Made by a program: the position numbers and the translations under genes. A stretch of 63,651 bases of DNA, counting the filler, from Lentisphaeria bacterium (lineage in GTDB: Bacteria; Verrucomicrobiota; Lentisphaeria; JABSQK01; JAWLHB01): the NCBI GenBank assembly GCA_041690595.1. It is 7 parts of 7 records of this genome, joined end to end, with 100 filler letters (N's around TTAATTAATTAA, not from the genome) between each part and the next. Parts side by side here need not be neighbours in the genome. Positions count along the whole stretch, not along the records: positions 23,578 to 33,598 come from JAWLHB010000082.1; 6 more parts are not named here. One strand, 5' to 3'. The first letter of the stretch is position 1. Every line of letters begins with the position of its first letter. Below, one piece after another: positions 23,578-41,134 of this stretch. The notes under the pieces were generated by a model. That model was given only the letters and a program-made list of their open reading frames with translations, made no database searches and was not told the DNA's origin.

Positions 23578-23932
23578 GGGCGCCAACGACGGCCTGCGCG
23601 GCCTGCCGCTCGACCGGGTGGAGGCCAACCTGCAGCGGCTGATCGACCTGGCCTGCGAAGACGGCGCGCGGGTGGTACTGCTCGGCATCATGCTGCCCAC
23701 CAACTACGGCCCGGCCTATGCCGAGCCCTTCCGCGAAATGTTCACCCGCCTGGCCGAGGCGAACGATCTGCCCGCCCTGCCGTTCCTCCTCGAGGGCGTC
23801 GCCACCGAGCGCGAGCTGATGATGGACGACGGCTTGCACCCGAATGCCGAGGGACAGAAGCGGGTGCTGGAGAATGTCTGGAGCGTGGTGGCGCCGTTGT
23901 GGGGGCTGGATGATGCGGAGAGATCCGAGTGA
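23578..23932 (+). CDS. tesA: Arylesterase / acyl-CoA thioesterase I (SGNH hydrolase), 5' truncated
   Basis: GANDGLRG, LPTNYG, DGLHPN. Confidence 0.85.
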
Positions 23933-24094
23933 GCGCACTTCACGGACCGCATATTTGTTCCCCTGCCAGCCTATACGGCGGGGCCTTATGCGGCCCATCC
24001 GCCGCTTAAGGCATTATCCTGCGGATGCGCCGCATAACACACCTGAAGGGAGTCTTGATAGCGGGCTCAACAGGTTGGTTTGTAGTCATAAGCA

Positions 24095-24157
24095 GGCCGA
24101 GCCCACGTTGGTCACAGGATCTTATGCGACGCTTAGGGCGCCCATTTGTAGTTAGAA
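24095..24157 (+). other. Probable attI-like site at the start of a cassette array
   Basis: GTTAGAA at 24151-24157 is complementary to TTCTAAC of the next attC; no attC hairpin directly upstream; left boundary approximate. Confidence 0.45.
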
Positions 24158-24174
24158 ATTAAAAGGAGGTATCC

Positions 24175-24402
24175 ATGTCATTTGAAAAACGTATTACCGC
24201 AGACTTAGTTAGAATCGCAGCCGCTGGTGGTGGCTTCCGATTGGAGTCGGGCTCTCGTACAACTGCCGATCTGGTTCGGGTTGCTGCAGCAGCAGCGACC
24301 AGTGGTGCGAGATTGACTTTCTCCGGTTTGGGAACTCGCACTACGGCTGACCTTGTCAGGATTGGTGCTGCTGGCAAGGGGGCCGTTGTTATGGAAGATT
24401 AA
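24175..24402 (+). CDS. 75-aa cassette protein with three R-x-TADLVR repeats
   Basis: AAGGAGG RBS; fills the space between the core site and attC. Confidence 0.85.
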   Translation: MSFEKRITADLVRIAAAGGGFRLESGSRTTADLVRVAAAAATSGARLTFSGLGTRTTADLVRIGAAGKGAVVMED

Positions 24403-24406
24403 TGCT

Positions 24407-24467
24407 TTCTAACAATCGCATGCAGTTGGACGCAGCAAAACCGCGCCGCTGATGCGAGGCGTTATGT
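24407..24467 (+). mobile_element. Integron attC site
   Basis: TTCTAAC...GCATGCAG...CTGATGC...GTTATGT, 61 bp, with an extrahelical base in the L box. Confidence 0.85.
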
Positions 24468-24521
24468 GCAAAGGCGTACCACCCCGCCTTGCTGTAATCC
24501 AAGAATAAATGAAGGGCTTTA

Positions 24522-26306
24522 ATGCATCGCCTCAGTCACCTGCGGATCAAGAATTTTCGCGCTTGCAAAGATGTTTCGTTGCCGCTGGAGGGCTATACCC
24601 CCTTGGTTGGGCAGAACAACACCGGCAAATCTTCCATTCTTCAAGCCATCAGTTGGGTCCTGAAGCCCGCAGCGCTTTCGGTAAAGGATTTCCATGATCC
24701 GGACCAGCCGGTGGAAGTGGTTGCGTGCATTGATGGCATTGCCGATGAGGTTCTTGGCCGAATTCCGGAACAGAAACATCGCAAGGCGATAACACCCTTT
24801 TGCCGTGATGGTCGCCTTTGGATTCGTGTCTCAGCAACGGGAACTACTGCCAAGACACTGAGCAAGGAAGTGTGGGATATCGAGCAATGTCCGGAGAATG
24901 GTGAGCCGGAACATTGGCGCGATTACCCAACCGGTCTCCCGCAAGCCGTTTCGGTTCTGCTGCCCGAGCCATTGCTTGTCCAGGCCATGCACGACATCGG
25001 TGAGGATTTGGGCAAGGCCAAGGCCGGAACCACGATCAAGAGCCTGCTAGATGAGATCATGGGACCGTTGCTCGAGGCCCATGCGGAGCTGAACACCGCT
25101 CTTGACACCATCCGTCACGTCCTGACGGCTGATGGCGATCACCGCTCTGACCACCTGCAGCAGTTTGATACCGATGCCAGTGGTGCGCTGGAGCACTTCT
25201 TTCCGGGGCTGGCGTTGGACCTGGATTTGCAGGTCGTTGATGTCAAGGAGTTCTTCAAGGCCGGTGACCTGCATGTCACGGACAAGACCACGGGCGACCG
25301 GCGCCGATTTGATCAGATGGGCACAGGCGCCCAGCGGTCCATCCAGATGGCTTTGATTCGCTATTTGGCGGAAACGCGTCGCGGCGAAGACGACAGCCCT
25401 TCACGCCGGTTGTTGTTGATTGACGAACCGGAATTGTACCTGCACCCGCAAGGGGTGCGGCGGTTGCGGCAGGCGCTGGCCAGCCTAGCTCAGGCAGGGT
25501 TTCAAGTAGTCTTTTCCACTCATTCGCCGCTGATGCTCAGCCGGGACAATGCCGCCGATACGGTGATTGTGGGCAAAAGCGCGGAAGAAGGCGTCACCGC
25601 CCGGAAACCCCTGCGCCAAGCTGTGGACGACGCCATTGACGGGGCCGAAAGCCAGTCCCGCGCCCTTTTCGAACTGAGCAACCTCGCCGAGATCTATTTC
25701 GCCGAGCGGGTGGTGCTCTGCGAGGGTAAAACGGATCGCCGCCTGCTGCCACTGGCCTACGATCGGCTTTACGGGCAGCCACCGGAGCTGGACCATATCG
25801 CCTTTGTGTCGCTGGGTTCTTGCGCGGACATTCCCAAGGCCCTACCGGTGCTGGCGGCCATGGGCATTCGCGCCTGCGCGGTTGCCGATCTGGACTTTGC
25901 CTACACCCACGCCCGCAAGGGCGGATTGCTGGACCGGGAGGCCGCGGACATGGCCGAGGCCAAGCGTGTACTGGCACGCTTGCAGCCCGACCACGGCTTC
26001 ACCCTCAACGGAAACGGTCTGCCCCAGAACAACCAACAGACTGGTTGGCTGGCCGCCGATGCCTGGGCCTGCTTCGCAACGGACGGAGAAGGCAAGGCAG
26101 TGGCCGAGGGTAGCCACGAAGCGCTGAGACAGGCCGGCGTCTGGGTTTGGCCGCAAGGCTGCATCGAGCAGGTGACCGGTGCCGACGACAAGGGCGAAGA
26201 CGCCATTATCGAACAGGAACAGCGGTTGCGTGACATGAGCGCGGCCGAAATCGAACAAGAGATGCCCGCCTTCAAGGCGTGCTTTGACTGGATCAGGAGT
26301 ATTTAA
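24522..26306 (+). CDS. OLD-family ATP-dependent nuclease (ABC ATPase + TOPRIM)
   Basis: GQNNTGKS, LLIDEPELYLHP, STHSP, LCEGKTD, ADLD. Confidence 0.9.
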   Translation: MHRLSHLRIKNFRACKDVSLPLEGYTPLVGQNNTGKSSILQAISWVLKPAALSVKDFHDPDQPVEVVACIDGIADEVLGRIPEQKHRKAITPFCRDGRLWIRVSATGTTAKTLSKEVWDIEQCPENGEPEHWRDYPTGLPQAVSVLLPEPLLVQAMHDIGEDLGKAKAGTTIKSLLDEIMGPLLEAHAELNTALDTIRHVLTADGDHRSDHLQQFDTDASGALEHFFPGLALDLDLQVVDVKEFFKAGDLHVTDKTTGDRRRFDQMGTGAQRSIQMALIRYLAETRRGEDDSPSRRLLLIDEPELYLHPQGVRRLRQALASLAQAGFQVVFSTHSPLMLSRDNAADTVIVGKSAEEGVTARKPLRQAVDDAIDGAESQSRALFELSNLAEIYFAERVVLCEGKTDRRLLPLAYDRLYGQPPELDHIAFVSLGSCADIPKALPVLAAMGIRACAVADLDFAYTHARKGGLLDREAADMAEAKRVLARLQPDHGFTLNGNGLPQNNQQTGWLAADAWACFATDGEGKAVAEGSHEALRQAGVWVWPQGCIEQVTGADDKGEDAIIEQEQRLRDMSAAEIEQEMPAFKACFDWIRSI

Positions 26307-28138
26307 TGCCGACGCTGGAGTTCAAGGGCAAGCAGTTTGTCTATTCCCACCACCTCGGGGTGCCATTTCGCGAATTGCAGGTGGTGCCGGACAAGTCCCT
26401 GCCCGCCAAGGGGCGGAAGCCTACGCTGGACGACAACCTGATTATCCACGGCGATAACCTGGAAGCCCTCAAGGCGCTTCTGCCCACCCACGCCGGTAAA
26501 GTGGACTGCATCTTTATCGACCCGCCCTACAACACAGGCAACGAGGGCTGGTGCTACAACGACAATGTGCGCTCGCCGCTGATGAAAGAATGGCTAAAGA
26601 AATCGGCCAACCCAGTGGACAAGGAAGACCTGGAACGGCATGACAAGTGGTTATGCATGATGTGGCCGCGCATCAACTTATTGAGAGAGTTGTTATCTGA
26701 GGATGGCAGCATTTGGATGACGTTGGATGATAATGAAATCCACAGAGCACGCGCACTTTTTGACGAGATTTTCGGAGAGGAGCACTTTATATGCTGCGCC
26801 GCGTGGGAGAAAACCTACACACCGAAGAGTAATGGAAGGGTAATAAGCACGGATCATGACTATGTTCTTGCGTATTGTAAGACAGAGGCATTCATCGACC
26901 ACGGATGGAACTACTTGGACCGAAATGAGGAACAAAAAAGTAGATTTAAAAATACTGACAATGATCCTAACGGGCCTTGGCGCACATATCCTCTTGACGT
27001 TCGAACTGAGAACAACGAAAGACGTGAAAAATATCGCTACCCGGTGACGCTCCCGTCAGGCCGGGTTGTTCGTCCTGCAAAGGGACGGCATTGGGCGTTG
27101 CCTGAACAAGAATTTGAGAAGCAACGAAAACGGGGGGAGATTTACTTCGGAAAAACTGGCGATGCGATGCCGACAAAAAAAGTCTATCTCGATAAGGACG
27201 AGGATAAAGGTGTTATAGCGCGCACATGGTGGGAATATCAGCAAGTCAAGGGTAATCAAGATGCTAAAAAACAACTCCTTGCGATAATGGGGGATGGCAG
27301 TGACTTCATTACACCGAAGCCATACCAGCTTGTTGAAAGAGTGCTTGAGATTGCAGCGGATCCAGATTCTTTGATCTTAGATTCATTTGCTGGGTCTGGG
27401 ACAACTGCCCATGCTGTGCTAGAAGCCAATAAAAAAGACAACGGCAACCGTCGCTTCATCTTGGTTGAGTGCGAGGACTACGCCGAAACCCTCACCGCTG
27501 AGCGAGTGCGCCGGGTCATCAAGGGCTACCCCTACACCGGCACCCAGCGTGAGGAGCTGCACCGGGAAAACATCACCTGGAGCGCCTTCGAGAAAAAGCA
27601 GGCCAAGATTCTGGAACATATCGCCTCTATCGAAAACCTGCACGGTCACGAATACGACAAGATCAAGAAGCAGATCAAGGATGGCGTGCTCACCGTGACC
27701 GGTGAGCGCAAGGTGGAGAAAACCGCGCCGGGGCTGGGGGGCAGTTTCACCTACTGCACCCTGGGCGATCCCATCGACATTGAAAGCCTGCTGACCGGCA
27801 AGGGGCTGCCGAGCTTTGAGGCGCTGGCCCGCTATGTGTTCTACACCGCCACCGGACAGTCGCTGGAGAAGGTCGGCAAGCCCGCACCTGATGGCTTTAT
27901 CGGCGAGACCGAGTTGTTCCGGGTACACCTGTTCTACCAGCCGGAAAAGGAATGGTTGCGCTCCAATGACGCCGCGCTGAATGCAGAGCGGGTGGCGGCC
28001 ATTGAAAAGGGCAACCAGAGCAGCAAGCGCGCCATTGTCTTTGCTGTCGCCAAGTTCATGAGCCAGAAGGAGTTGACCGCTCGGCGCATCGAGTTCTGCC
28101 AGTTGCCTTATGCCGTCCACCGGATTCTGGGGGATTGA
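26306..28138 (+). CDS. mod: Type III R-M DNA methyltransferase
   Basis: HGDNLEALK, DPPY, TPKP, LDSFAGSGTT (beta-class order); TAATG coupling to the OLD gene. Confidence 0.92.
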   Translation: MPTLEFKGKQFVYSHHLGVPFRELQVVPDKSLPAKGRKPTLDDNLIIHGDNLEALKALLPTHAGKVDCIFIDPPYNTGNEGWCYNDNVRSPLMKEWLKKSANPVDKEDLERHDKWLCMMWPRINLLRELLSEDGSIWMTLDDNEIHRARALFDEIFGEEHFICCAAWEKTYTPKSNGRVISTDHDYVLAYCKTEAFIDHGWNYLDRNEEQKSRFKNTDNDPNGPWRTYPLDVRTENNERREKYRYPVTLPSGRVVRPAKGRHWALPEQEFEKQRKRGEIYFGKTGDAMPTKKVYLDKDEDKGVIARTWWEYQQVKGNQDAKKQLLAIMGDGSDFITPKPYQLVERVLEIAADPDSLILDSFAGSGTTAHAVLEANKKDNGNRRFILVECEDYAETLTAERVRRVIKGYPYTGTQREELHRENITWSAFEKKQAKILEHIASIENLHGHEYDKIKKQIKDGVLTVTGERKVEKTAPGLGGSFTYCTLGDPIDIESLLTGKGLPSFEALARYVFYTATGQSLEKVGKPAPDGFIGETELFRVHLFYQPEKEWLRSNDAALNAERVAAIEKGNQSSKRAIVFAVAKFMSQKELTARRIEFCQLPYAVHRILGD

Positions 28139-28140
28139 GC

Positions 28141-30795
28141 ATGGAGCTGAAGGAATACCAGCAAGGCGTGCTGAGCAAGCTGGACCGCTACCTCACTGTG
28201 CTGGCCGAGCAGCGCGAGCGTGCGGGACGCATTTTGGCCTTCCTCAAAGAGGAAGGTGATGATAAAGCCACGCTGAGTGACTACTGCCGGGAAGCCTGGG
28301 ATCAGCTCAACACAGAGCGGCTGCTGCCGTACCTGTACCAGAACGGCAATCCCGTGATCGCGCCTCACTTGTCGCGCCAAGATGGCCTGGGGCAGTCGAT
28401 CCCCAATATCTGCTTCAAGGTGCCCACCGGCGGCGGCAAGACGTTGCTGGCCACGGCAGCGCTGGAGCGGGTGCAGACGGATTATTTCAAGCGCCAGACT
28501 GGGCTGGTGCTGTGGGTGGTGCCCTCCGAGGCGATCTACCGGCAAACCTGGAAACAACTGGCCAACCGCGAACACCCCTATCGGCAGATGCTGGAGCGCG
28601 CCTCTGGCGGGCGGGTGAAACTGCTGGAAAAGGGCGATGCCTTTACCCGCCGGGATGTGGAAGACCAGTTGTGTGTGATGCTACTGATGCTGCCCTCGGC
28701 GGCGCGCAGGTCCAAGGAAACACTGCGCCTGTTTCGCGACAGTGGCCGCTTTACCTCCTTCTTCCCGGTGGAAGACGACAGCGAGGCCAATCGGGGATTG
28801 CTCGATCAAGTACCGAACCTGGATCAGAACGATCTGGCGGATATGGGCTTTGCCGAGGGCATTGTGCCAAATTCGATTTCCGTCAAGCAGAGCCTGGGCA
28901 ATGTGCTGCGGCTGGTGCGCCCCGTGGTGGTGATCGATGAGGGCCACAAGGCTTATTCGGACACCGCCCGGGATACCCTGGCCGGGTTCAACCCGCGATT
29001 CATCCTGGAATTGTCCGCGACGCCCAACACCAACAACAAACACCAGTCCAATGTGCTGGTGAATGTGCCCGGGGCGGACCTCAAGGACGAGGAGATGATC
29101 AAGCTGCCCATCAATGTGGTCAACGAGGGCAAGGGCGGCTGGAAGCACACCCTGACGCTGGCACATGCCAAGCAACAGGATCTGGAGCAGGCGGCGCTGG
29201 CGTTCCAGAACGAGACCGGGCGGTATATCCGCCCCATCGTTCTGATTCGTGTGGAGCGTACCGGCAAGGAGCAGCGCGACGCCGGGCTGGTGCATGCCGA
29301 AGACGCCAGGGAGTATCTGCGCGATCAGTTGGGCGTGAAGGAAGAGCATATCCGCCTGAAGACCTCCAGTGACGACGAGCTGGCCGACGAAGACCTGTTA
29401 TCTTCCACCTCGCCGGTGCGCTTTATCATCACCAAGGACGCCCTGCGCGAAGGCTGGGATTGCCCCTTCGCCTATGCCCTGGCGGTGCTGTCACGCACCA
29501 CAGCCACAACGGCGCTGACACAGATGATTGGCCGGGTATTGCGCCAGCCCTATGCCCAGACAACTGGCGTGGCCGCGCTGGACGAGTGCTATGTGTTCAC
29601 TTTTGATCAGGATGTGACCGCGGCGGTCAATGGGGTGCGAAAGGGGCTGGAGGATGAAGGCATGGCCGATCTGGCCTCCAGTGTGAAATCCGTGGACCCG
29701 GGCAGCGGTCAGGCACAGAACATGCGCCGCGAGACTATTCACCGGCGGGATAAATTCGCCGGCTTGCCTCCTGTCTTCCTGCCGCGTGTATTGCACCGGG
29801 ATCCCAATGCGTCTGAGGGCTATCGCCCATTGGATTACGACCGTGATGTGCTGGGCGCATTGGACTGGGAGGCATTGCAGTTTCTGGGGGCGGACAAGGC
29901 CGCCATGGACGACGACAAGCTGCAACGCACCGTGGCGCGCGTCACCCTGGACCGCAAGGCCAAGGAGACCGGCCAGACGGTGATCGAACTCGAGCAAGAG
30001 GCCGTCGATGCCTTGCCCGAGGAAGGGCTGGACGCGCCTTATCTGGTGCGCCAGTTACTCGATGTGGTGCCCAACCCCTGGCAAGGGATGCGCCTGTTGG
30101 ACGAAACCCTGGCCGCCCTGCGGGGCAAAGGCGTGACCGATGAGCAGATTTATGTGAACCGGCTGGATCTGGTGCAGACCATGAAGGCCGACCTGCGCGA
30201 GCAGGTCAACGCCATGGCTGAAAGCCTGTTTCGAGAAAAGCTCGATAGTGGGGAAATCGCCCTGCGGCTGGTGGCCTCCAATGACCCGGCATTGAACTGG
30301 AAAATTGCCGAGACCCTGGAAATCGATGTATCCGATGTGGACCCCCTGCTTTACCGCAAGAACGGCGAGCCGCTGGAGAAAAGCCTGTTCGAGAAGGTGT
30401 ACCAAAAGGAATTCAACGACCTGGAGAAGAATACCGCTTGGTATCTGGATGAAAGTCAGTGTGTCTATTGGTGGCACCGAATTGCTGTCAATCAGCGCTC
30501 TTACGGCTTGCAGGGCTGGCAGCGCCACCGTGTGTATCCTGACCTGCTAGCTTGCGTGCATGGTGTCGAGGAAGACAAGTTCCGTTTCTCGGTACTGGAA
30601 ACCAAGGGCGACCACCTCAAAGGCAACGACGATACCGAGTACAAGCGCAAGCTGTTCGAACTGTTTACCCGCTACGCCGATGTGACGGCCTCCATTGGCC
30701 AACTCGCGCTTGAGGACCAGGACGAACCCATGCGGTTCCGAATGGTGATGGAAAAGGATTGGAAGCAGGCGCTGGTGGATGAAGGTATCCGGTAA
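28141..30795 (+). CDS. res: Type III R-M restriction subunit (SF2 helicase + PD-(D/E)xK nuclease)
   Basis: VPTGGGKT, IDEGH, LSAT, EGWDCP, QMIGRVLR, YPD...LETKG. Confidence 0.9.
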   Translation: MELKEYQQGVLSKLDRYLTVLAEQRERAGRILAFLKEEGDDKATLSDYCREAWDQLNTERLLPYLYQNGNPVIAPHLSRQDGLGQSIPNICFKVPTGGGKTLLATAALERVQTDYFKRQTGLVLWVVPSEAIYRQTWKQLANREHPYRQMLERASGGRVKLLEKGDAFTRRDVEDQLCVMLLMLPSAARRSKETLRLFRDSGRFTSFFPVEDDSEANRGLLDQVPNLDQNDLADMGFAEGIVPNSISVKQSLGNVLRLVRPVVVIDEGHKAYSDTARDTLAGFNPRFILELSATPNTNNKHQSNVLVNVPGADLKDEEMIKLPINVVNEGKGGWKHTLTLAHAKQQDLEQAALAFQNETGRYIRPIVLIRVERTGKEQRDAGLVHAEDAREYLRDQLGVKEEHIRLKTSSDDELADEDLLSSTSPVRFIITKDALREGWDCPFAYALAVLSRTTATTALTQMIGRVLRQPYAQTTGVAALDECYVFTFDQDVTAAVNGVRKGLEDEGMADLASSVKSVDPGSGQAQNMRRETIHRRDKFAGLPPVFLPRVLHRDPNASEGYRPLDYDRDVLGALDWEALQFLGADKAAMDDDKLQRTVARVTLDRKAKETGQTVIELEQEAVDALPEEGLDAPYLVRQLLDVVPNPWQGMRLLDETLAALRGKGVTDEQIYVNRLDLVQTMKADLREQVNAMAESLFREKLDSGEIALRLVASNDPALNWKIAETLEIDVSDVDPLLYRKNGEPLEKSLFEKVYQKEFNDLEKNTAWYLDESQCVYWWHRIAVNQRSYGLQGWQRHRVYPDLLACVHGVEEDKFRFSVLETKGDHLKGNDDTEYKRKLFELFTRYADVTASIGQLALEDQDEPMRFRMVMEKDWKQALVDEGIR

Positions 30796-30811
30796 GCAGG
30801 GAGCAATATGT

Positions 30812-30887
30812 ACATAACAACAGCGTCAACGCGGATTGGCTTTTCCGCTGGCGCTCCAAAGCCGGCCGGCTACGACGGCCGTGACGC
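30812..30887 (+). mobile_element. Terminal attC site with degenerate right core
   Basis: ACATAAC (complement of GTTATGT at 24461); arms CGTCAAC.CGGATTGGCTTT / AAAGCCGGCCGGCTACG; ends GTGACGC. Confidence 0.7.
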
Positions 30888-32474
30888 ATGAGCATCTGGA
30901 AGAGCAGTGCGGCCTTTGGCGGGATGACCATGATCTCGCGCGTGCTGGGGTTCGTGCGCGACGTGCTGCTCGCGCGGGTGTTCGGGGCCAGCGCGGCGAC
31001 CGATGCCTTCTTCGTCGTCTTTAAGATTCCCAACTTCCTGCGCCGCCTGTTCGCCGAGGGGGCGTTCCAGCAGGCCTTCGTGCCGGTGCTCTCGGAATAC
31101 CGCGAGACGCGGACCCGCGCCGAGCTCAGGGATTACGTCGATCACATGTTCGGCACGCTCGCCGCGGTGCTGGTGGTGGTCGTCTCGCTGGGGCTGGCGG
31201 GTGCACCGCTGCTGGTCATGCTGTTCGCGCCGGGCTTCACCGACGACCCGGGGCAGCGGGAGCTGGCCGAGACGATGCTGCTGATTACCTTCCCGTATCT
31301 GCTGTTCATCTCGCTGACCGCCTTCACGGCGAGCACGCTCAACGCATTCGGCCGCTTCGCCATGCCGGCACTCGCGCCCATCTGGCTGAACATCAGCCTG
31401 ATCGCCGCCACGCTCGTGGCCGCGCCGTTCTTCGCCGAGCCGGTGATGGCCTTGGCCTGGGGGGTCTTCGTCGCCGGCATCCTGCAGCTGTTCTTCCTGC
31501 TGCCGTTCCTTGCCCGGCTGGGGCTGTTGCCGCGGCCTCGGTTCGGCCGGCACGCGGGGGTGCGCAAGACGCTGCGCCTGATGCTGCCGGCGATGTTCGG
31601 CGCGTCGGTCACGCAGATCAACCTGCTGGTCGACACGATCCTCGCCTCGCTGCTGGTGGCCGGCTCGGTGAGCTGGCTGTACTACTCCGACCGGCTGGTG
31701 GAGCTGCCGCTGGGGGTGTTCGGCGTGGCAATCGGCACGGTGATCCTGCCGGCCCTGTCGCGCGCCTTCGCCCGCGGCAGCGACGAGGATTACAATCGCA
31801 CCGTCAACGGCGCCCTGAAACTGACGCTGCTGATCGGCGTGCCGGCCATGGCGGGGCTGATCGGCCTGGCGGTGCCGATACTCGCCACGCTGTTCCAGTA
31901 TGATGCCTTCACCGCCATGGACACGCAGATGGTGGCGCTGGCGATGACCGCCTACGCGCTGGGGCTGCCGGCGTTCCTGCTGATCAAGATCTTCGCGCCG
32001 GGGTTCTTCGCCCGGCAGGACACCACCACGCCGGTGCGCATCGCCGTGATCTCGGTGCTCGCCAACCTGGGCTTCAAGGCAGTGCTGGTGCTCCCCTGGG
32101 TGTTCCTGCTCGGCGGGCATCTGGCCCACGTCGGCCTGGCGCTGACCACGGTGATGGCCGCCTGGGTCAACGCCCTGCTGCTCGGCTGGACGTTGCGCCA
32201 GCGCGGCGCGTGGCGGGTCGAGCCGGGCACGCGGCGTTTCATCGGCCGGATCACGCTGGCCGCCGTGGTGATGGCCGGGGTGCTGCTGTGGGCCAGCCCG
32301 CCGGTCGAGGTGTGGACCGCCTGGGGGGCGGGCACGCGGCTGGCGGCCGTGGCCGGGCTGATCGGCCTCGGCGTGCTGATCTTCGTGGTCGCGGCCGCCG
32401 GCCTCGGCCAGACGCCGCGACGGTTGTGGAACGTGGTCACCTTCGACCGCGACGTGCCGCCCGAGCGTAGCTGA
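30888..32474 (+). CDS. murJ: Lipid II flippase MurJ (MviN)
   Basis: SRVLGFVRD, PNFLRRLFAEGAF, DRLVELPLG; upstream of ribF. Confidence 0.95.
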   Translation: MSIWKSSAAFGGMTMISRVLGFVRDVLLARVFGASAATDAFFVVFKIPNFLRRLFAEGAFQQAFVPVLSEYRETRTRAELRDYVDHMFGTLAAVLVVVVSLGLAGAPLLVMLFAPGFTDDPGQRELAETMLLITFPYLLFISLTAFTASTLNAFGRFAMPALAPIWLNISLIAATLVAAPFFAEPVMALAWGVFVAGILQLFFLLPFLARLGLLPRPRFGRHAGVRKTLRLMLPAMFGASVTQINLLVDTILASLLVAGSVSWLYYSDRLVELPLGVFGVAIGTVILPALSRAFARGSDEDYNRTVNGALKLTLLIGVPAMAGLIGLAVPILATLFQYDAFTAMDTQMVALAMTAYALGLPAFLLIKIFAPGFFARQDTTTPVRIAVISVLANLGFKAVLVLPWVFLLGGHLAHVGLALTTVMAAWVNALLLGWTLRQRGAWRVEPGTRRFIGRITLAAVVMAGVLLWASPPVEVWTAWGAGTRLAAVAGLIGLGVLIFVVAAAGLGQTPRRLWNVVTFDRDVPPERS

Positions 32475-32485
32475 CGGAATCTTGC

Positions 32486-33493
32486 ATGAAACTGACACGC
32501 CTTCACGTCGCCGATACCCTGCCCGCCGCCGGTCTCGCCCCCGCTGGCGCGGTGGTCACCATCGGCAACTTCGACGGGGTGCACCGCGGCCACCGGGCGG
32601 TGATCCGTCAGGCCGCCGAGCGCGCCCGCGAGCTCGGCCTGCCGCTGTTCGTGGTGATCTTCGAGCCCCTGCCGCGCGAGTATTTCGCCGAGGTGAGGGG
32701 CATAACGCCCGTCGCCCGCCTGACGCGGCTGCGCGAACGCTTCGTCGCCTTCGAGCGGCTGGGCGTGGTGGACCGCCTGGTGCTGCTGCCCTTCAATCGC
32801 CGGCTGGCCGAGCTGCCCGCGGAGGCCTTCGTCACCCGCCTGCTCGTCGGGGCGATGGGGGCGCGCCACGTGGTGATCGGCGACGACTTCCGCTTCGGCG
32901 CCAAGAGGCAGGGGGACTTCGTCCTGCTCGAATCGCTGGCCGCCGAGCACGGCTTCGGGGTCGAGCGCGCGCGCACGGTGTCGCTGGACGCGGAAAGGGT
33001 CTCCTCGACGCGTGTTCGCGCGGCGCTGGAGGCCCGCGACGTGGTCGAGGCCGCGCGCCTGCTGGGGCATCCGTTCTTTCTCTGCGGGCGGGTGATGCAC
33101 GGCGACAAGCGTGGGCGGCAGCTGGGCTTTCCCACCGCCAACATCGCCCTGCGACGCCGGTTGTCGCCGTTGCGTGGTGTCTTTCTGGTGCGGGTCTCCG
33201 GCATCGGGGAAGCGCCGCGTTACGGGGTGGCCAACATCGGCACCCGCCCGACCGTCGACGGCGTCGAGGCCCGGCTGGAGGTGTTCCTGCTGGATTTCGA
33301 AGGCGATCTCTATGGCCGGCTGGTGGAGGTGGACTTTCTCGCCGGCATCCGCGACGAGCGGCGGTTCGAGTCGCTGGACGCGCTGGTCGAGCAGATCGAC
33401 CGGGACGTGGCCGAGGCGCGCGGACTGATCGAGGCACATGAAGGCGCGGGTCGCCATTGGGCGGTCGACCGAACCGAGAGAGAGGAATCGTGA
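32486..33493 (+). CDS. ribF: Bifunctional riboflavin kinase / FAD synthetase
   Basis: IGNFDGVHRGH, GDDFRFG, SSTRVR, GFPTAN, GTRPT. Confidence 0.95.
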   Translation: MKLTRLHVADTLPAAGLAPAGAVVTIGNFDGVHRGHRAVIRQAAERARELGLPLFVVIFEPLPREYFAEVRGITPVARLTRLRERFVAFERLGVVDRLVLLPFNRRLAELPAEAFVTRLLVGAMGARHVVIGDDFRFGAKRQGDFVLLESLAAEHGFGVERARTVSLDAERVSSTRVRAALEARDVVEAARLLGHPFFLCGRVMHGDKRGRQLGFPTANIALRRRLSPLRGVFLVRVSGIGEAPRYGVANIGTRPTVDGVEARLEVFLLDFEGDLYGRLVEVDFLAGIRDERRFESLDALVEQIDRDVAEARGLIEAHEGAGRHWAVDRTEREES

Positions 33494-33598
33494 ACGAATT
33501 CAATGCCCTGATGAACAACCCGTTTGCCTGGGGACTGACCGGGCTGGTCGTGCTGCTCGCTATCGCGCTGGCCTGGCTGGCCGGACGCCTGCGCAGCG
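33490..33598 (+). CDS. 5' end of a membrane-anchored protein (truncated)
   Basis: GTGA overlap with the ribF stop; N-terminal TM helix. Confidence 0.5.
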
Positions 33599-33698: not shown

Positions 33699-33794
33699 CA
33701 CTTGCCTCCGGATTGCCTGGTCGCCATTATCTCATGGACACCCTGCGGAGGCACTCGATGGGGCGCTGGGGAGCGAAATTAAATCAGCGTTTCC
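33699..33794 (-). mobile_element. End of an IS5-family-like element inserted in hsdS
   Basis: Minus strand reads CTAA|GGAAACGCTGATTTA, resembling an IS5-group terminal IR after a CTAR target; GGAGG + GTG at the contig edge. Confidence 0.6.
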
Positions 33795-34552
33795 TTAGGC
33801 TTCGAGACATCGAGAAAACCCTCACGAACATTCTCGCTAGTAACAAACAGGACCCCATCATCTTGATATTCAAACCCCTGCCATTTCGGTGATTGGCCCT
33901 TGGTAATCCTTGTCGCCTTTTCTCCCAGCAGACAGACCTTCCACCCCATCGGATTGGCGACGGGGTCGCCGAACATGTCGAGGAATGTGGATTGCAGGAG
34001 CGTGTCGAGGTGGGCGAGAGCCTCGCGGCGTTTGGCCCGCAAGGCGTCCGCCGCATCCAGAATCCCCGCAATCCGCTTCTGCTCGGACAGCGGTGGGAGG
34101 GGCATCTGAAGCTCGTTGAGATCCTCGTTCCGTAGGTTATTGATGTTCGCACCCGCCGCGAGACAGGAAACCCTACGGCGGTAATGAGGCGTCTTGAAGA
34201 AGTGAGAGAAATACGCTGCGTCCACCTGTTTACAAGGTCGCAGCACTTTACAAAATGCCCCAAACCCTCCTTGAAAGTCTTCGAGTGCGCGCGCAGCTTT
34301 CCCGACAACGTCGATGCTTCCACTTGATGCAGCAATCACGATATCGTTCTTCCTCACCATTTGCTTCGGCGAGATTTTGGAAGACGGGACGTAGACCAAG
34401 TCGTCATACGTCAATCCGAATTCAGCGATGTTGCCGGCACGAAGAACAGGTAAATACCCATCGCGTTTGCTGGTGGATGCATCCTGTTTTTGATAGGTGA
34501 CACCACGGATCTGGTCCGCGATGTCGCCAACCCGGTAGAGCGTTGCCGTCAT
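33779..34552 (-). pseudogene. hsdS: Type I R-M specificity subunit, truncated in TRD2
   Basis: TRD1, LPPLSEQKRIA spacer, FLDMFGDP, then an abrupt stop at 257 aa inside the IS end. Confidence 0.85.
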
Positions 34553-36051
34553 CCCAACAACCCCTCCAGTTCCCTCCGCCCCTCGGCGATCTCCTGCTCC
34601 AACTTCGCCAGCCGCTGAACAATTTCATGCGGGGAGGCATGCTCGACCGCCTCGTATTCCACTTCCTTGTAGCGGTTGATGGAGAGGTCGTAGTCGTTGC
34701 CCGCGATCTCGGCCTTGGGCACGAGGAAGCTGCGGTCGGTGCGTTTGCGGGTAGTTTCGGCCTCGCGGTTCTGCCAGCGGGCGAGGATGTCGGGCAGGTC
34801 GCTCTTGTCGGGCTGCGGGCTGCGTTTGTCGTCCAGCGAGAAGCCGTCGGACTGCATGTCGTAGAACCAGACGTGATCGGTGCCGCCGGCTCCGGGCTTT
34901 CCCAACGGGTTGCTCTTGGTGAAGAACAGGATCGCGGTGGAGACCCCGGCGTAGGGCTTGAACACGCCCGACGGCATCGAGATGATCGCGTCGAGCCTCT
35001 GGTGCTCGACCAGGATTTGCCGCAGCGCTTTGTGGGCCTTGGATGAGCCGAACAGCACGCCGTCCGGTACGATGACCGCCGCGCGCCCACCGGTCTGCAG
35101 CAGGCGCAGGAAAAGGGCCAGGAACAGAAGCTCGGTCTTCTTCGTCTTGACGATCTGCTGCAGGTCCTTCGCGGTCGACTCGTAGTCCAGGCTTCCGGCG
35201 AAGGGCGGATTCGCGAGGACCAGCGAGAAGCGTTCGGCGTCGTCCTGATCCGACTGGGCGAGCGAATCGCGGTAGCGGATATCGGGGTTCTCCACGCCGT
35301 GCAGCAGCATGTTCATGCTGCCGATGCGGAGCATGGTGCTGTCGAAGTCGTAGCCGTGGAAGGTGCCCGAGTTGAATTTGCGGCGGCTGGCCTCGGTCTT
35401 GTAGATCGCGTCGCCATGATGCTCGCGCAGGAACTCCGAAGCGGCGATCAGGAAACCGGCGGTGCCGCAGGCCGGGTCGCAGATCACGTCCTTGGGCGCC
35501 GGGGCGGTCATGTCCACCATCAGCTTGATGATGTGGCGCGGCGTGCGAAACTGGCCGTTCTGCCCGGCGCTGGCGATCTTGCCGAGCATGTACTCGTACA
35601 GGTCGCCCTTGGTGTCGGCATCCGCCATGCCGATGCCGTCGAGCTGGTCCACCACATTCGCCAGCACGCGCGGCGTCGGCATCATGAAGATCGCGTCCTT
35701 CATGTGGTGGGAGTACGTCGAATCGCCCTCCTCCTCCGTCCCGCCATTGCTGCCGAGCGTCTTGATGAAAGGGAACACCTCGTCCTTCACCGTGGCGAAC
35801 ATCCGCTCCGGAGCGGTCTCCTTGAAACGCGACCAGCGCAGGTGGTCCTCGTCCGGTGCGAAGATCGGCTCCTCGACCGCCATGCCGGTGCGCGCCGCCT
35901 GGTACTCGCGCAGCGTCTGCAACTCGTCCAGCCGCTTGATGAACAGCAGATACGTCAACTGCTCGATGACCGACAGCGGGTTCGAGATGCCGCCCGACCA
36001 CATCGTGTCCCAGATGCGGTCGACCTTGGATTTGAGTTCACCGGTGATCAC
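34549..36051 (-). CDS. hsdM: Type I R-M methyltransferase
   Basis: IEQLTYLLF, GQFRTPRH, DPACGTAGF, NPPF, VPDGVLFG. Confidence 0.95.
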   Translation of the reverse strand: MITGELKSKVDRIWDTMWSGGISNPLSVIEQLTYLLFIKRLDELQTLREYQAARTGMAVEEPIFAPDEDHLRWSRFKETAPERMFATVKDEVFPFIKTLGSNGGTEEEGDSTYSHHMKDAIFMMPTPRVLANVVDQLDGIGMADADTKGDLYEYMLGKIASAGQNGQFRTPRHIIKLMVDMTAPAPKDVICDPACGTAGFLIAASEFLREHHGDAIYKTEASRRKFNSGTFHGYDFDSTMLRIGSMNMLLHGVENPDIRYRDSLAQSDQDDAERFSLVLANPPFAGSLDYESTAKDLQQIVKTKKTELLFLALFLRLLQTGGRAAVIVPDGVLFGSSKAHKALRQILVEHQRLDAIISMPSGVFKPYAGVSTAILFFTKSNPLGKPGAGGTDHVWFYDMQSDGFSLDDKRSPQPDKSDLPDILARWQNREAETTRKRTDRSFLVPKAEIAGNDYDLSINRYKEVEYEAVEHASPHEIVQRLAKLEQEIAEGRRELEGLLG

Positions 36052-36107
36052 GAATCACTGTTCCGATTCTTGCTTGCGCTACTAGGCAGAATGGACTGCA
36101 CGAGCAT

Positions 36108-36167
<60 letters not shown>

Positions 36168-36238
36168 AATATCGTCACGTGCCTCATCGTCTCAGTTGAA
36201 GATTCATCTTGGCCAACCGTTTGTCAGCTCAATCAAAC

Positions 36239-37144
36239 CTATAGATTCAGGTCCCGCAAGGCGACGAAAGCCCGGTTCGTTTCGGCAGCTCGGCGTTCCT
36301 TGGCTTCCAGAACCGTGATCAGCGAGACCTTGCGCGAGAGAACCTCATAAAGGTCGAGCCCGTCAGCACATATGAGGTTAGTCTGTCGTCCACGCGAGAA
36401 CGCCTCCAGCCCGTCGTCCGTGAATCCGGAATTGCTAACGAACAGGCCGCGCGACCAGGACGCCTTCCCACCGACCTTGCCCGAAAAGGTCATCAGGTCA
36501 GCAAAGCCGATTTGAGGTCCTTGCCACTTCGCTTCGACCAGGTAGGTCTGACCGTGCAGTTTGAAACTGCCGTCGATCTGCTCGCCGACGAGCCGAAAAG
36601 AGCCACGCGGAGCCAGCCCGAAGCCGGCGAACAGCTCGTTGAGAAAGCCTTCGAAACGTAGACCTCGCGCCTGGGGATCGAGCTTGGTGATCTCGATGAG
36701 GAGGGTGGCGAGCTCCTGCGCCTTCTCCGCACCTAGCGTCGCGGACTTTTGCGACGCAGGCTCTGTCGCCTTAGGCGAGCCGAAGCTGCCGAGGAAGCTC
36801 GGATCGAGTAGCTCAGGGATTTTGAATTGCACAGCGGGAAGAAGGCTGTTGAGCCGATCAATCTCTTCACGACTGAGGGGATTGCCCTTCCCCCGCCGGT
36901 AGGTCATCGCTTGGCGAACGATCGCCACGATCAACTTCGTAAAGCACGACCTGCGGTGTTCCAGCGTCGCGGTCAGGAGTTGAACAATGGCTGGTCGCTT
37001 GCTGCCCGGGACCCATAGGTCGCCGACACCAGCCTGCGCAGCAGCAAGTGGAAATGCGGTCCTGTTGTTTCCGCTTCCGGGAAGGAAATCGTAGAGGAGG
37101 TCTGCAAGGTCTTCGACCGCCTGAGCTTCTCGAAATGACATCAT
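36239..37144 (-). CDS. Mrr-like PD-(D/E)xK restriction endonuclease with an uncharacterised N-terminal domain
   Basis: [29 protein letters not shown]. Confidence 0.8.
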
Positions 37145-37147
37145 AGA

Positions 37148-38965
37148 CTACTCGCCCTCGGCCTCCCCCATTCGCGCTTCAAGTTCATCCAAGAATGGTG
37201 AGCGCCCCCAATGCATCCGGCCGCGGCCCGTATCGACATAGCCGGAATAGAGCATATAGATTTCGTCGCGGGCGCGTGTGAGGCCGACGTAGAAGAGCCG
37301 CCGGCTCTCGCGGCGAGCCGCGGGCAACTCATTGCGCCAGGGCAAACTCCCGAGATCGAGACCGACCATGATCACAACGTCGTACTCGCACCCCTTTGCG
37401 GAGTGCAGCGTCAGCAAGTTCAGATGCAGCGGAGACCCATTGCGGCCACCAAGGCTCGCAAGATCGAGATCGGCGAGCGTTCCACCGACCGCCAGAGCCG
37501 CCGACATGCGATCGACCTGCTCACGCTGATCAGCGAGACCCGGCTCAGCCGTGATCAGCGCATCAAGCATTCCTGCGCGGACTGCCGTGACGAAATCCCG
37601 AGCGAGTCCCTCATCGACGCGAAGCGACCATAGAAGCTGCGTCAGGCGCTGGGATTCATCTCGGGCATGCGCTTCTGAAAACCGGGTGCGACAAAAGCCG
37701 AGCCAACGATCGAGCAATCCACGCAACTGTGGCCGGGCCTCGCGCCAGCCACCGGAACACCACGCCGCGCAATCCTCGATCCAGCTCGTGAGCGCGACCT
37801 TGCGGTAAGGTGCCGCGGTGTCGACGCGGACAAAATCGATGCCTGCGGCAGCGGCGGCTTCCGCCACGACGTCGCCGGCTCGGTAGTCGCGGTAGAGGAT
37901 GGCGATGTCACCCAACGCGCGTCCGCGCTTGGCCGCGAGAGCAGCTGGAATGATTTCGGCGACCGCATGCGCGGCTTGCCCTTCCAGGCCATCGGCGCAC
38001 TGAACGAATTCTATGATCGCCTGGCGGTCCGGGTCGTTGGACTGATAGCCACGGACCTCGCCTAGTGCCATCTCGGATGCGCTGACGATGCGCGACGCCG
38101 AACGATAGTTAAGCTGCAACTGAACCTGCTCGACATCGTCCCGCTCGGCAAGCTCCTGCAGCAGCGCTCCGTCGGCGCCGGTAAAGCCGTAGATCGACTG
38201 GTCGGGGTCTCCGACCGCGAAGAGCCGCACGCCGCCATCGAAGGCGACGCGCTTGACGATCCGATGCAAGGCGACGCCGAGATCCTGATATTCATCGACC
38301 GCGAGCATCGGAAATTTCGCCTGAAGCAGCGGGAGCACCCAGTCGTGCTCCGAAACCAGACGCTGCCCGAAAATCACGAGATCATCGAAGTCGATCAGAC
38401 CCAGCCGTCGCAGCTCGGCCTCATATCCCTCTGCCCACGCCGCGAGTTCCCCCTCGCTGGTCCAAGCGACCGATGTTCGGTCGAGGACGGACCGTCGATG
38501 CCGTCCAAGGTCCATGGGCTTGTTGGGATGGCCGACGCCGAACAGCCGATCGCCGATGCGCTTCATTGCCTGGTCGCTCTGACGCTGCGTGGCGACGGTG
38601 AGCGGGAAGGGCACCGGGAGGTCCGCAAGCCGACCATAGGGCATGAGAAGATGCCTCAGGCAGAACCCATGCACCGTGCCGATAAAAAGATTGGGCGCCT
38701 CGCGCAGGCCCAGCCGCTCCAGTCGACGTGTCAGTTCGCGTGCGCATTCTTGGCTATAGGTGATGCATGCCGCGCCTCGGGGTACGCGCACATCCTCTGC
38801 CATAATCCGGGCGAGCTTGAGCACCAGCGTCTTCGTTTTGCCGCTGCCGGGCCCGGCCAGCACCACGCAGTTGCCCGTGGAATCGTAGGCTGCCTGCTGA
38901 CCCGGATTGCCTGCAAGATCGGCCGCTTGGGCGAGATACGCCGCGCTGACACTACGCAATGGCAT
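37148..38965 (-). CDS. gajB: UvrD-like helicase, Gabija GajB
   Basis: AGPGSGKT, VDEYQD, GDPDQSIY, NYRS, TLHSAKG, RLFYVGLTRA; ATG 38965 overlaps the gajA end. Confidence 0.8.
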   Translation of the reverse strand: MPLRSVSAAYLAQAADLAGNPGQQAAYDSTGNCVVLAGPGSGKTKTLVLKLARIMAEDVRVPRGAACITYSQECARELTRRLERLGLREAPNLFIGTVHGFCLRHLLMPYGRLADLPVPFPLTVATQRQSDQAMKRIGDRLFGVGHPNKPMDLGRHRRSVLDRTSVAWTSEGELAAWAEGYEAELRRLGLIDFDDLVIFGQRLVSEHDWVLPLLQAKFPMLAVDEYQDLGVALHRIVKRVAFDGGVRLFAVGDPDQSIYGFTGADGALLQELAERDDVEQVQLQLNYRSASRIVSASEMALGEVRGYQSNDPDRQAIIEFVQCADGLEGQAAHAVAEIIPAALAAKRGRALGDIAILYRDYRAGDVVAEAAAAAGIDFVRVDTAAPYRKVALTSWIEDCAAWCSGGWREARPQLRGLLDRWLGFCRTRFSEAHARDESQRLTQLLWSLRVDEGLARDFVTAVRAGMLDALITAEPGLADQREQVDRMSAALAVGGTLADLDLASLGGRNGSPLHLNLLTLHSAKGCEYDVVIMVGLDLGSLPWRNELPAARRESRRLFYVGLTRARDEIYMLYSGYVDTGRGRMHWGRSPFLDELEARMGEAEGE

Positions 38966-40736
38966 CGCGGATATGCTCCAGCGCCTGCCGGATATAGTCC
39001 GGACACGTATCCTCATCGACGTGCGGCGCCAGCGCCTGCGCGAAACGCCCTTTGCCAATCCGCTCAATGAGCTTGATCAGTCGCGCCTCGTCGAGGGTCT
39101 CGGTGTCATCAACCCATCCTTGGATCAGGTCGCGCGTCGCTTGACCGACCGACAGTTCCTGTTCTATGACCTCCTGCATCGCCTTAGCAAGCCCGCCGTC
39201 GAACAACTCCGGCTCAAGAGTGTTGCTGTTCACGAAATATCCTAACGCCTCCGCGCGCGCGATGACGGCGTCGGCATCCAGAGGCGTGTAATTCACGCCG
39301 TGTTCGACCAAGCGCAGGACATTAATCAGGCGACGTCGGACCAGTGGAGGCTTCGTTCCGTTAGGGTCGCGATCGGTCAGAATGACATGCGGGATGTTGA
39401 GGCCCTCGGGACCCAGCAGCTTGACGTACGGCGTGAAGTTCGTGCCGCTGGCCGAGCATACGGTGATGCCCAGCATGTCGAGTGGAATGTTCAGCGCCTC
39501 GGCGAAGGCAGGCACGAGAAACCGCTCCGCGTCGCCCTCGACCAGGATGACCCCGCGAGCGAAGAAGATTTCACCACGACTTACGTCGATGTAGCGCTGA
39601 AGGTCCGCCTCGTCGCGCTCGTCGAGCGGCGCCTTGGCAGTCGAAACGGCGATCGTCGCATTCGTTGCCGCGTCATGGCGAAGCAGCACGATCGACCGGA
39701 TCGGGGTGACGCTCGCGATGTGCGGCGAATGTGTGGTCAGGATGGTTGTGAGTGGCGGTGTTTGCTCCTCGCCATCCCCGCTGCTGCCAAGGAAATAGCG
39801 GTAAACCAGACGCTGTACGTGCGGGTGAAGGTGAGCTTCCGGCTCCTCGACCACGAAAAAGGTGTGGTCGCGCTCGCCATCTGTCACGAGCCGATCGAGT
39901 TCCAGGCTCTTGAGTGCCAGGAAAATCAGGTTCGCCGTCCCAAGGCTGGCATCTGGAATGCCGCGCGCACCATTGTCGATCAGCAGACGCAGGCTGCGCA
40001 GCAGCGCATCGACCCGCGTCGGCGCCAAGCCAAGTGTCAACGGCACCGCATGCTGCTCGCCGGCGATCGCGATCAGCCGCTCGCCGATTCGCTCGGCGGT
40101 CGCGACCACTCCTTCATGGCTGACCAGCTCGGCCTGCGCCTCGGTGACTTGCTCCTGGATTTCGGCCCGCGCGTCTTCATCGAGGGAGGTCGCCAGCTCC
40201 TCAATCAACGGCCTTAACGGCGAATTGCGCCAACTCGACAGATCCTTCTCGGCATCCCGCAGCGCGACCTGCGCGTCTAGCGGAAGCATCCGCCGCAGCG
40301 ACGGCCCAATTGACATCTCGGGATCGTCGCCGCCGAAAACGATGTACTCATAGTCGACGAGGCTCTCCGGGTCCCGCCCGAGATTGGCCTTCGGTTGGAA
40401 ACGGTAGGTGAGACGCGCAACCATCGGCGGACCCGGATCGACGATGCAGTCGTTGAGGTGCGCCATCAACCGCGGATCGCCCGTGAAGTTGGTCAGCTCC
40501 ACCGCGACCTCGATTGTTTCGCCTAGCTTGTCTTCTCCCAAGCCATCCCAGAAATGCTCAAGCCCGAGCTGCCGATCACGCTCGGAAAGTCCAGGGTCGA
40601 GGATCAGTTGCAGGGCGCGAACGAAGTTGCTCTTGCCGACCTTGTTTTCACCGACAATGACTATGCTTTCCCCGGTCTCGACGTCGATCTCCGAAAAGTT
40701 TGCGAAGTTGCTGATTCTTACCCGCGAGATTCGCAC
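38952..40736 (-). CDS. gajA: OLD-family ATPase-TOPRIM nuclease, Gabija GajA
   Basis: GENKVGKS, EEPEAHLHP, TTHSP, LVEGDAE, LTDRD; adjacent to UvrD. Confidence 0.82.
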   Translation of the reverse strand: MRISRVRISNFANFSEIDVETGESIVIVGENKVGKSNFVRALQLILDPGLSERDRQLGLEHFWDGLGEDKLGETIEVAVELTNFTGDPRLMAHLNDCIVDPGPPMVARLTYRFQPKANLGRDPESLVDYEYIVFGGDDPEMSIGPSLRRMLPLDAQVALRDAEKDLSSWRNSPLRPLIEELATSLDEDARAEIQEQVTEAQAELVSHEGVVATAERIGERLIAIAGEQHAVPLTLGLAPTRVDALLRSLRLLIDNGARGIPDASLGTANLIFLALKSLELDRLVTDGERDHTFFVVEEPEAHLHPHVQRLVYRYFLGSSGDGEEQTPPLTTILTTHSPHIASVTPIRSIVLLRHDAATNATIAVSTAKAPLDERDEADLQRYIDVSRGEIFFARGVILVEGDAERFLVPAFAEALNIPLDMLGITVCSASGTNFTPYVKLLGPEGLNIPHVILTDRDPNGTKPPLVRRRLINVLRLVEHGVNYTPLDADAVIARAEALGYFVNSNTLEPELFDGGLAKAMQEVIEQELSVGQATRDLIQGWVDDTETLDEARLIKLIERIGKGRFAQALAPHVDEDTCPDYIRQALEHIRDAIA

Positions 40737-40774
40737 ACGCCTCTCCCTCGATTGGGTCTCGGTTCATTCTTGTT

Positions 40775-40835
40775 GCCTAACAGTGTATTGGACAGAATCT
40801 GGAATATCGGTGATAGCCAGATTCTATATAGTATG
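40775..40835 (-). other. Probable attI site
   Basis: GTTAGGCAA core (40781 down to 40773) matches TTGCCTAAC of attC at 36161-36169; lies between the first cassette and a divergent intI-like start. Confidence 0.6.
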
Positions 40836-40914
40836 GTCCGACGCTTGCGTGGTTCGCGCCCCGTGCGGCAGGATCGAGCGGCACTTTGCCCATCGGCTTA
40901 CAGGAGGTTGGCTC

Positions 40915-41025: not shown

Positions 41026-41133
41026 GGGGATTCCGGGGACAGTATACTTATATCGCCTTCTCCCTTTGGTTGGCGCACGGGGCGTCTCAGCCATTGCTCA
41101 CGCAATCAATGGGTGTACTGTCCCCGAAAATCC
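41026..41133. repeat. Inverted-repeat element A
   Basis: GGATTCCGGGGACAGTATACTTAT ... ATGGGTGTACTGTCCCCGAAAATCC. Confidence 0.85.
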
Positions 41134-41134
41134 A

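Follow-up and report, generated by a model that had tools for sequence, protein, structure and literature searches.

Evidence that a 6.4-kb unit encoding an OLD-family nuclease and a type III restriction–modification system is one integron gene cassette

Can a complete multi-gene defence operon travel as a single integron gene cassette? This question is raised by a locus in a stretch of 63,651 nucleotides (hereafter the window, meaning the whole stretch analysed) from the Lentisphaeria bacterium assembly GCA_041690595.1, which consists of seven contigs joined via runs of N. On contig C82 (window positions 23578-33598, 10,021 bp), a tesA-like gene and murJ enclose the genes old, mod and res, which encode an OLD-family nuclease and a type III restriction–modification (R-M) system. 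An earlier reading made without database searches (here, the sequence-only reading) had proposed that these genes were moved as one giant cassette. We come to the same view: judged by its ends and surroundings, old-mod-res is one integron gene cassette of 6.4 kb, because relatives share its boundaries with different neighbours (loci L056, L058 and L076) and no internal attC recombination site was found. The features of this cassette, which is the second of its array, are as follows.

24462..30881, + strand: cassette 2, 6420 bp, comprising old, mod, res and attC2
24522..26306, + strand: old, OLD-family ABC-ATPase/TOPRIM nuclease, 594 aa (PADLOC Old, E 1.7e-217, full length)
26306..28138, + strand: mod, type III methyltransferase, 610 aa (PADLOC MTase_III, E 9.9e-249)
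26678..27311, + strand: swappable target-recognition region of mod, about residues 125-335
28135/28141..30795, + strand: res, type III restriction subunit, 884-886 aa (PADLOC REase_III, 1270 bits, full length)
30812..30887, + strand: attC2, decayed; the cassette ends at G30881 and the core reads GTGACGC

The four heptamers on which the sequence-only reading was built (GTTAGAA at 24151, TTCTAAC at 24407, GTTATGT at 24461 and ACATAAC at 30812) are all in place, both pairs being exact complements, and the lengths it derived for two cassettes, 310 bp (24152-24461) and 6420 bp (24462-30881), are correct. The 24461/30812 pair has the form of cassette ends, a G|TTRRRY core with a complementary inverse core, and bounds cassette 2; the claim that the 24151 heptamer is a cassette core of the same kind did not stand, since this heptamer belongs to attI. 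Cassette 2 is about three times the size once cited for the largest known cassette. Its three genes are coupled, as had been proposed: the old stop overlaps the mod start (TAATG), mod and res overlap or nearly touch, and there is no intergenic space for an attC between the three.

Homology and motifs divide the cargo into two recognisable systems: an OLD nuclease on the one hand and type III R-M on the other. Old matches Pfam OLD-like_TOPRIM, has 6p74 as its closest solved structure and shows the domains of the OLD family, with conserved Walker A/B, H-loop, TOPRIM Glu and DxD motifs. It scores 722 bits against Old models versus 93 bits against GajA models, and the cassette lacks a UvrD gene, so Old does not qualify as Gabija (class 2 OLD). 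Mod carries DPPY at 72 and motif I at 359 in the beta-class order (motif IV, target-recognition domain, motif I), while Res has SF2 helicase motifs and a C-terminal PD-(D/E)xK. The pair thus has the genes and motifs of a type III R-M system; NCBIfam PRK15483 was matched far under its cut-off only.

Sites were sought with a strict attC finder of our own and with R1, a covariance model that we built ourselves (it is not IntegronFinder's model) from 44 attC picked by that finder: 42 from Halothiobacillales integron loci plus those of L055 and L067, with the attC of this cassette excluded. The E-values of R1 are rough. With filters off, R1 gave 12 matches on C82 at E up to 10, and this covariance scan bore out the sequence-only reading by placing 24407-24467 first and 30812-30887 second; the remaining matches score at most 9.4 bits and are partial or lie within coding sequence. 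The strict finder reports 24407-24467 alone, and ACATAAC is the inverse core in 1 of the 44 training sites. That cassette 2 contains no attC of its own other than the terminal one, on which the sequence-only reading depended, agrees with both tools: neither the strict finder nor R1 with filters off found an internal attC within 24462-30881. Loose scans offered one internal candidate, 27010-27071, which was rejected; it lies in the variable coding part of mod and is negative with both tools.

The strongest support for a single cassette comes from copies elsewhere. A metagenome scan with Old yielded at least 23 loci and 342 genomes in the family of G484 yielded 4 more; among the 27 old loci listed, L068 and L069 are one element. 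In these 27, mod directly follows old in 15, an old remnant precedes mod in 3 and lies at the contig end in 1, old stands alone in 3, and the contig ends inside old in 5. As the sequence-only reading would require, the boundaries recur in relatives: the same ends are found in L054, L056, L058 and L076, with unit lengths of 6417, 6403, 6415 and 4794 bp, respectively. L054 is the same locus as the window (91% DNA identity), so the GTTATGT/ACATAAC pair, shared with L056, L058 and L076, makes both cassette ends visible at four places. In L076, most of old is deleted and the unit lies directly behind an attI-like end and a 5' part of intI. The left end alone is more widespread: TTATGT lies 48-73 bases ahead of old in L054, L055, L056, L058, L060, L064, L065, L067, L072 and L115, and in none of the 12 other old loci tested (L072 is ambiguous, having this left end yet no attC behind res).

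The neighbours of the unit differ from place to place. Upstream, the window has attC1 (the 24407 site), L055, L058, L060, L064 and L067 have other attC, and L056 and L076 have attI-like ends; the gene end upstream of the L056 unit we take to be guaA. R1 reports an attC ending at the left end in L054, L055, L060, L064 and L067 (the L067 site being in its training set), while for L058 and L115 an attC-like site there is seen by eye only and is reported by R1 in neither. Downstream, the res end is visible in 14 listed loci, 4 of which (L054, L056, L058 and L076) have the same attC behind it with different cores next. The L056 unit precedes a Sir2-domain cassette and the L058 unit follows another cassette. 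Homology to the window ends within a few bases of G|TT at either end of the unit in L056 and L058; in L055 and L060 it does so at the left end. A public contig from run X3 spans 24106-26667 and 27366-29680 with another recognition domain; it is not counted as a further place because it may come from the same population as L054.

The same copies explain the state of the terminal site. R1 gives attC2 13.1 bits (E 0.058) versus 45.3 bits for L058, 37.6 for L076 and 33.6 for L056, and its core has GTG in place of GTT. The sequence-only reading had tied its case to folding of the 30812 site as an attC. Taken literally, this fails for the window copy, whose lowest-energy fold is not an attC hairpin (its circular form and the L054 site misfold too), but the intact homologues in L056 and L058 do fold as attC hairpins, with z-scores of -4.2 and -3.6. 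Compared with L058, attC2 is substituted at 7 of 73 positions, including the GTT to GTG change, and 5 of the 7 lie in the last 17 positions (Fisher p 0.006). Given these intact homologues, we interpret the 30812 site as a decayed attC. L054 departs from L058 at the same 7 places, so the decay is older than the split between window and L054, and cassette 2 is probably immobile now, locked in place by the decay of its terminal attC. That the 30812 heptamer arose by chance, or that the contig is chimeric, might be argued from the weak R1 score and from the status of C82 as a stray in its bin (see below). This is hardly credible: 66 of 73 bases match an intact attC behind the same gene in L058, and the whole locus recurs in L054 and partly in run X3, which refutes it.

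We consider it very probable that this is a true 6.4-kb cassette, inserted by an integrase and later fixed. A circular form with a single attC (inverse core ACATAAC, core GTTATGT) would have been inserted by an integron integrase (IntI), with crossover at G|TT, at attI sites or within arrays in several bacteria; that unrelated places share identical ends is the reason to infer that IntI moved a 6.4-kb circle. In a Guyparkeria-like lineage, the cassette would have entered an attI between tesA and murJ, where the 310-bp cassette would have been added ahead of it. The intI gene, which is not at the locus, would have been lost or supplied from elsewhere. Removal of the stretch between array and murJ and decay of the last attC would then have fixed the cassette, with its genes kept by purifying selection and its specificity shifting by Mod domain swaps with related loci.

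Several observations weigh against this account. Besides the misfolding of attC2, only three two-ended places are known beyond tesA-murJ, all of them metagenome contigs; intI adjoins only L076, where old is mostly deleted; and attC is absent behind res in 10 of the 14 listed loci. No circle or excision joint was seen among the 15 of 50 joints that were listed from four public runs, whose contigs drop rare forms, so that this negative cannot show absence; no sign of expression was seen either. In published assays, long cassettes recombine less well: Loot et al. 2017 (PMC5371416), whose longest inserts measured 3,060 bp, saw length matter for some site pairs, and in a 2026 preprint (10.64898/2026.03.17.712381) no reads are reported from a cassette that an insertion sequence (IS) had lengthened to 4 kb. 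Finally, a single clade for 7 cassette rows versus 11 others on the Old tree was rejected (approximately unbiased test, p 1.3e-6, quick tree); this test left out L054, the duplicate L068 and the partial L061, L062, L065 and L067, and a first tree had been seen beforehand.

Part of this evidence could be taken to mean that the block spread by homologous recombination or on other mobile elements, with attC and core as mere passengers. intI is absent at the window, L056 and L058 loci, long cassettes are poorly excised in the published work cited above, and the operon does ride other elements: AlpA-type islands in the case of L057 and L059, and elements carrying ParE, relaxase or TrbL genes in that of L069, L071 and L116-L118. 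Such spread does not account for homology that stops within a few bases of G|TT between unrelated flanks, which give no homology arms, and open reading frame (ORF) lists show no transposase or repeats at the ends. We regard it as quite improbable.

A composite origin, in which an old cassette and mod-res were joined by attC loss, or mod-res was recombined in from an island, deserves more attention, although we still judge it unlikely. It is suggested by L115 (in G623), where a 1925-bp cassette carries old alone; this cassette shares the 5' end, is 86% identical in DNA, and has another attC, beginning one base past the old stop (23.8 bits, weak fold with z 0.5). mod-res also occurs without old (L053 and L037), the Old trees mix cassette and island copies, and L058 pairs an Old of only 78% identity with a Res of 94%. 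On the other hand, the 15 listed loci with mod directly after old include islands and extend down to 68% Old identity; the Old tree places L115 with the full cassettes (support 92, unresolved), which fits loss of mod-res equally well; and no attC remnant lies between old and mod, which overlap by stop and start. A unit of composite origin may nonetheless have moved whole afterwards. Since cassette-borne Old is not one clade, some copies may have gained genes by recombination into an existing cassette, and with recombination between copies evident, we claim no donor or order. Whatever its origin, insertion as one integron cassette is the reading that we retain.

Two further observations concern loci of this set. 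The array of L115 that holds the old-only cassette also has, at 3010-12460, a four-gene operon, encoding a 1245-aa DUF3584 protein and DUF7281 among others, between a decayed attC and an attI-like stretch; it is not clearly a cassette and has no PADLOC match. In L059 (11785-12050), an internal deletion that looks in-frame has taken out mod-res, fusing the beginning of mod to the end of res; old is intact there.

How did the cassette come to lie between two host genes? The other features of C82 are as follows.

23578..23932, + strand: 3' part of a tesA-like GDSL thioesterase gene, a host gene cut by the contig start (Pfam Lipase_GDSL_2)
23983..24157, + strand: attI region without intI; hairpin at about 23990-24037, core G|TTAGAA at 24151
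24152..24461, + strand: cassette 1, 310 bp, with the GTTAGAA/TTCTAAC pair and attC1
24175..24402, + strand: 75-aa ORF with three RTTADLVR-like repeats
24407..24467, + strand: attC1, intact (R1 45.7 bits), bottom-strand fold
30888..32474, + strand: murJ, host gene (Pfam MurJ), starting 6 bases past the cassette end

The array begins at an attI, recognised by homology: 23983-24157 aligns with the attI adjoining an intact intI in G033:C92 (L049), as well as with four integrase-less copies (L011, L054, L109 and L110), of which L109 and L110 are integrase-less arrays at two other Guyparkeria-like loci. DNA homology with L011 and L020 (one element) runs from tesA through 24154 and ends at G|TT, past which L011/L020 continue into a GAF-GGDEF cassette. 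On this alignment, the 24151 heptamer is an attI core rather than an attC core. The end of tesA lies 51 bases ahead of the attI hairpin, and no intI stands beside attI as it would in a complete integron. One attI family with an upstream hairpin is thus seen at four Guyparkeria-like loci (L049, L109, L110 and L011/L020); intI adjoins only once, and homology to this intI-bearing copy stops just short of the hairpin. A reading of 23950-23975 as the remnant of an intI start, LexA box included, was dropped, as this stretch is common to the attI-less L027 and is unlike the intI upstream region of L049. Within the order, 16 of the 54 genomes have an intI above the family cut-off, and G033 holds both an intI-bearing integron and an integrase-less tesA-murJ array, so supply of the integrase in trans is possible; such supply has also been stated for clusters of attC lacking integrases (CALINs; 10.1101/2025.06.18.660453).

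The first cassette carries the 75-aa ORF, which has no match in Pfam, PADLOC or NCBIfam and 105 homologues at E<=0.001 among 194 candidates; these fall only in unnamed clusters in Atlas, and some are labelled 'DNA replication protein' by one source. As the first cassette of a defence-rich array, it is a candidate small defence gene. The lowest-energy fold of attC1 is an attC-type hairpin (z -1.64).

At the other end, murJ starts 6 bases past the crossover G, so the array-murJ spacer of relatives is gone. The spacer would have been lost either via IntI at a secondary site or via deletion, and part of the altered arm of attC2 may be host-derived. The tesA-like gene, matched by NCBIfam PRK10528 below its cut-off, has matches of 55-80% identity ahead of murJ in 16 of the 23 loci examined in relatives. 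Where relatives carry both genes (16 loci), tesA and murJ lie 20-1160 bases apart in 14 and 4152 bases apart in the other two, compared with 6959 bases here. The empty tesA-murJ site that the sequence-only reading expected in relatives was not found: none of the 16 loci with both genes has an exact empty attI. Insertions and repeats concentrate in this interval across relatives; in L011 (5849-10001), it holds the GAF-GGDEF cassette, a DUF3024 cassette interrupted by an IS-like transposase, and a toxin-antitoxin pair preceding murJ.

C82 itself is most likely a Guyparkeria-like stray within bin G000, since its MurJ is 85-95% identical to MurJ from Guyparkeria and related records (and at most 40% identical to any match in 30 kin genomes of the bin), and the bin has its own murJ and ribF on contigs other than C82. 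The statement that the contig lacks intI was accurate: the integron integrase model TIGR02249 has no match on C82, and none of 7 matches in the whole bin is over the cut-off. As C82 is a stray, absence from the bin is uninformative about the true host genome, and the relatives of G000 are useless for an empty-site search. Old was found in none of the 400 genomes scored in the class or 401 genomes of another order, nor on plasmids (E 1e-60) or in the viral contigs searched, and an RNA search gave no holder among those listed. An Rfam scan of C82 returned only 2 weak matches, both under gathering scores. A sigma-70 scan found no + strand sites, and fewer sites than in shuffled sequence, so that the cassette promoter (Pc) and murJ transcription are not placed. 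No Shine–Dalgarno-like word precedes murJ in the window or L054, yet 4 of 14 relatives also lack one, which makes loss of a murJ ribosome-binding site a weak proposal.

Other parts of the window and bin also carry integron material. Contig C83 (window 33699-43396, - strand) holds a Gabija pair (GajA 38952-40736, GajB 37148-39067) plus a 301-aa ORF, a strong attC at 36108-36167 (43.5 bits), which is the sole attC found on that contig, and a type I hsdM (34549-36051) followed by an hsdS truncated at the contig end; this Gabija/type I stretch possibly represents further multi-gene defence cassettes. On C98 (61078-63651, 2.6 kb), attC at 61518-61578 (57.2 bits) and 62723-62800 (53 bits) lie between short ORFs without a good family match, and the contig resembles a piece of a cassette array. 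G000:C90 likewise carries an attC. The main genome of the bin has a related mod-res (L037, 11119-15513, at the end of contig G000:C40) without old or attC, 61% and 67% identical to the window pair.

In a comparison of 13 Mod sequences, six of them cassette copies, the N-terminal 120 residues are 95-100% identical and the C-terminal part 83-93% identical among the six, while about residues 125-335 are only 27-49% identical, each copy having a different domain. The recognition domains recur across contexts: that of the window is shared with the Proteus island L053 (79%), L054 with the island L057 (87%), L055 with L066 (70%) and L076 with L072 (66%), and this part of mod is replaced again in runs X2 and X3. 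The pattern is one of specificity changing by recognition-domain swapping with related loci, probably by homologous recombination. No simple-sequence or phase-variation repeat was found in mod. Between window and L054, the ratio of nonsynonymous to synonymous substitution rates (dN/dS) is 0.07 for old and res and 0.13 for the mod C-terminal part, with dS of 0.13-0.27 for the cassette genes versus 0.36 for the compared part of murJ; the cassette genes have thus remained under purifying selection after window and L054 diverged.

In function, the two systems would form two lines of defence. Mod would methylate one strand of a short asymmetric site, and Res-Mod would cut unmethylated phage or plasmid DNA, restriction by Res-Mod being what type III systems do. 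Expression would come from a promoter near attI. OLD would serve as a second, abortive line: P2 Old is a nuclease that cuts tRNA (PMC12445682), and a comparable role is suggested for the cassette protein. It is possible, although doubtful, that OLD and the R-M pair are functionally linked beyond being carried together: the stop-start overlap is conserved, and the 3 stand-alone old loci speak against a strict need for an R-M partner. Like class 1 OLD (P2 Old and Thermus scotoductus OLD, 6p74; PMC10568477, PMC12445682), the cassette protein combines an ABC ATPase with TOPRIM, its motifs intact, and the cassette has no UvrD or reverse transcriptase partner. By definition, class 1 OLD is encoded by a lone gene that has no other defence genes beside it (PMC10568477); unlike that class, the cassette old does not stand alone, being translationally coupled to mod in most informative loci. 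The mod-res pair, in turn, resembles the Helicobacter type III systems for which Furuta and Kobayashi (PMC3467074) described mobile recognition domains, in its gene order, beta-class motif order and central domain that varies across loci with different flanks, but differs in that its chassis is an integron cassette coupled to old and mod has no phase-variable repeat.

How does such a cassette compare with known ones? R-M systems in integrons have long been known (PMC4176335). Darracq et al. (10.1101/2024.07.02.601686) report 783 cassette-borne systems, never with more than two components as given in their text, and find them small, shorter than copies elsewhere, using default IntegronFinder options; type III systems may be among those in their Figure 1D and Table S4. 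Cassette 2 is like the surveyed ones in lying in a chromosomal array, its defence genes enclosed by a core site and an attC; unlike them, it has three full-length genes over 6.4 kb. Counted as in that survey, it carries two systems (1 + 2 components), so it departs further from the size pattern than from the limit on components. The open-access listings searched contain no paper about a cassette that carries a type III system or exceeds 6 kb. With its two attC and no intI nearby, and with related integrase-less arrays at other Guyparkeria loci, the array resembles a CALIN as described by Cury et al. 2016 (PMC4889954), but it keeps a recognisable attI and its attC lie 6.3 kb apart. The 4-kb limit set in that work was twice the largest known cassette (~2 kb), and default IntegronFinder runs would therefore not join the two sites of the window.

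The view that cassettes are small thus rests partly on a tool default unable to join attC more than 4 kb apart, and default options also underlie the description of integron defences as streamlined. A three-gene unit of 6.4 kb whose cassette ends agree to the base at several places indicates that whole operons can be cassettes. It offers a test of the upper size limit, as the assays cited here reach ~3 kb. Cury et al. call cassette creation unknown; here, the island operon, the full cassette and the single-gene cassette with another attC provide a before-and-after set for cassette origin, and the decayed attC by murJ illustrates a route by which such a cassette would become a permanent host locus. 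More tentatively, with a chance that we put close to even, multi-kb defence cassettes may be a regular class that surveys miss, this one being a specificity-switching chassis (old, mod ends, res and attC constant, recognition domain exchangeable) that trades parts with islands; the size series (6.4, 4.8 and 1.9 kb) may record operons becoming cassettes and then being streamlined, and OLD and type III R-M may act as one two-layer system.

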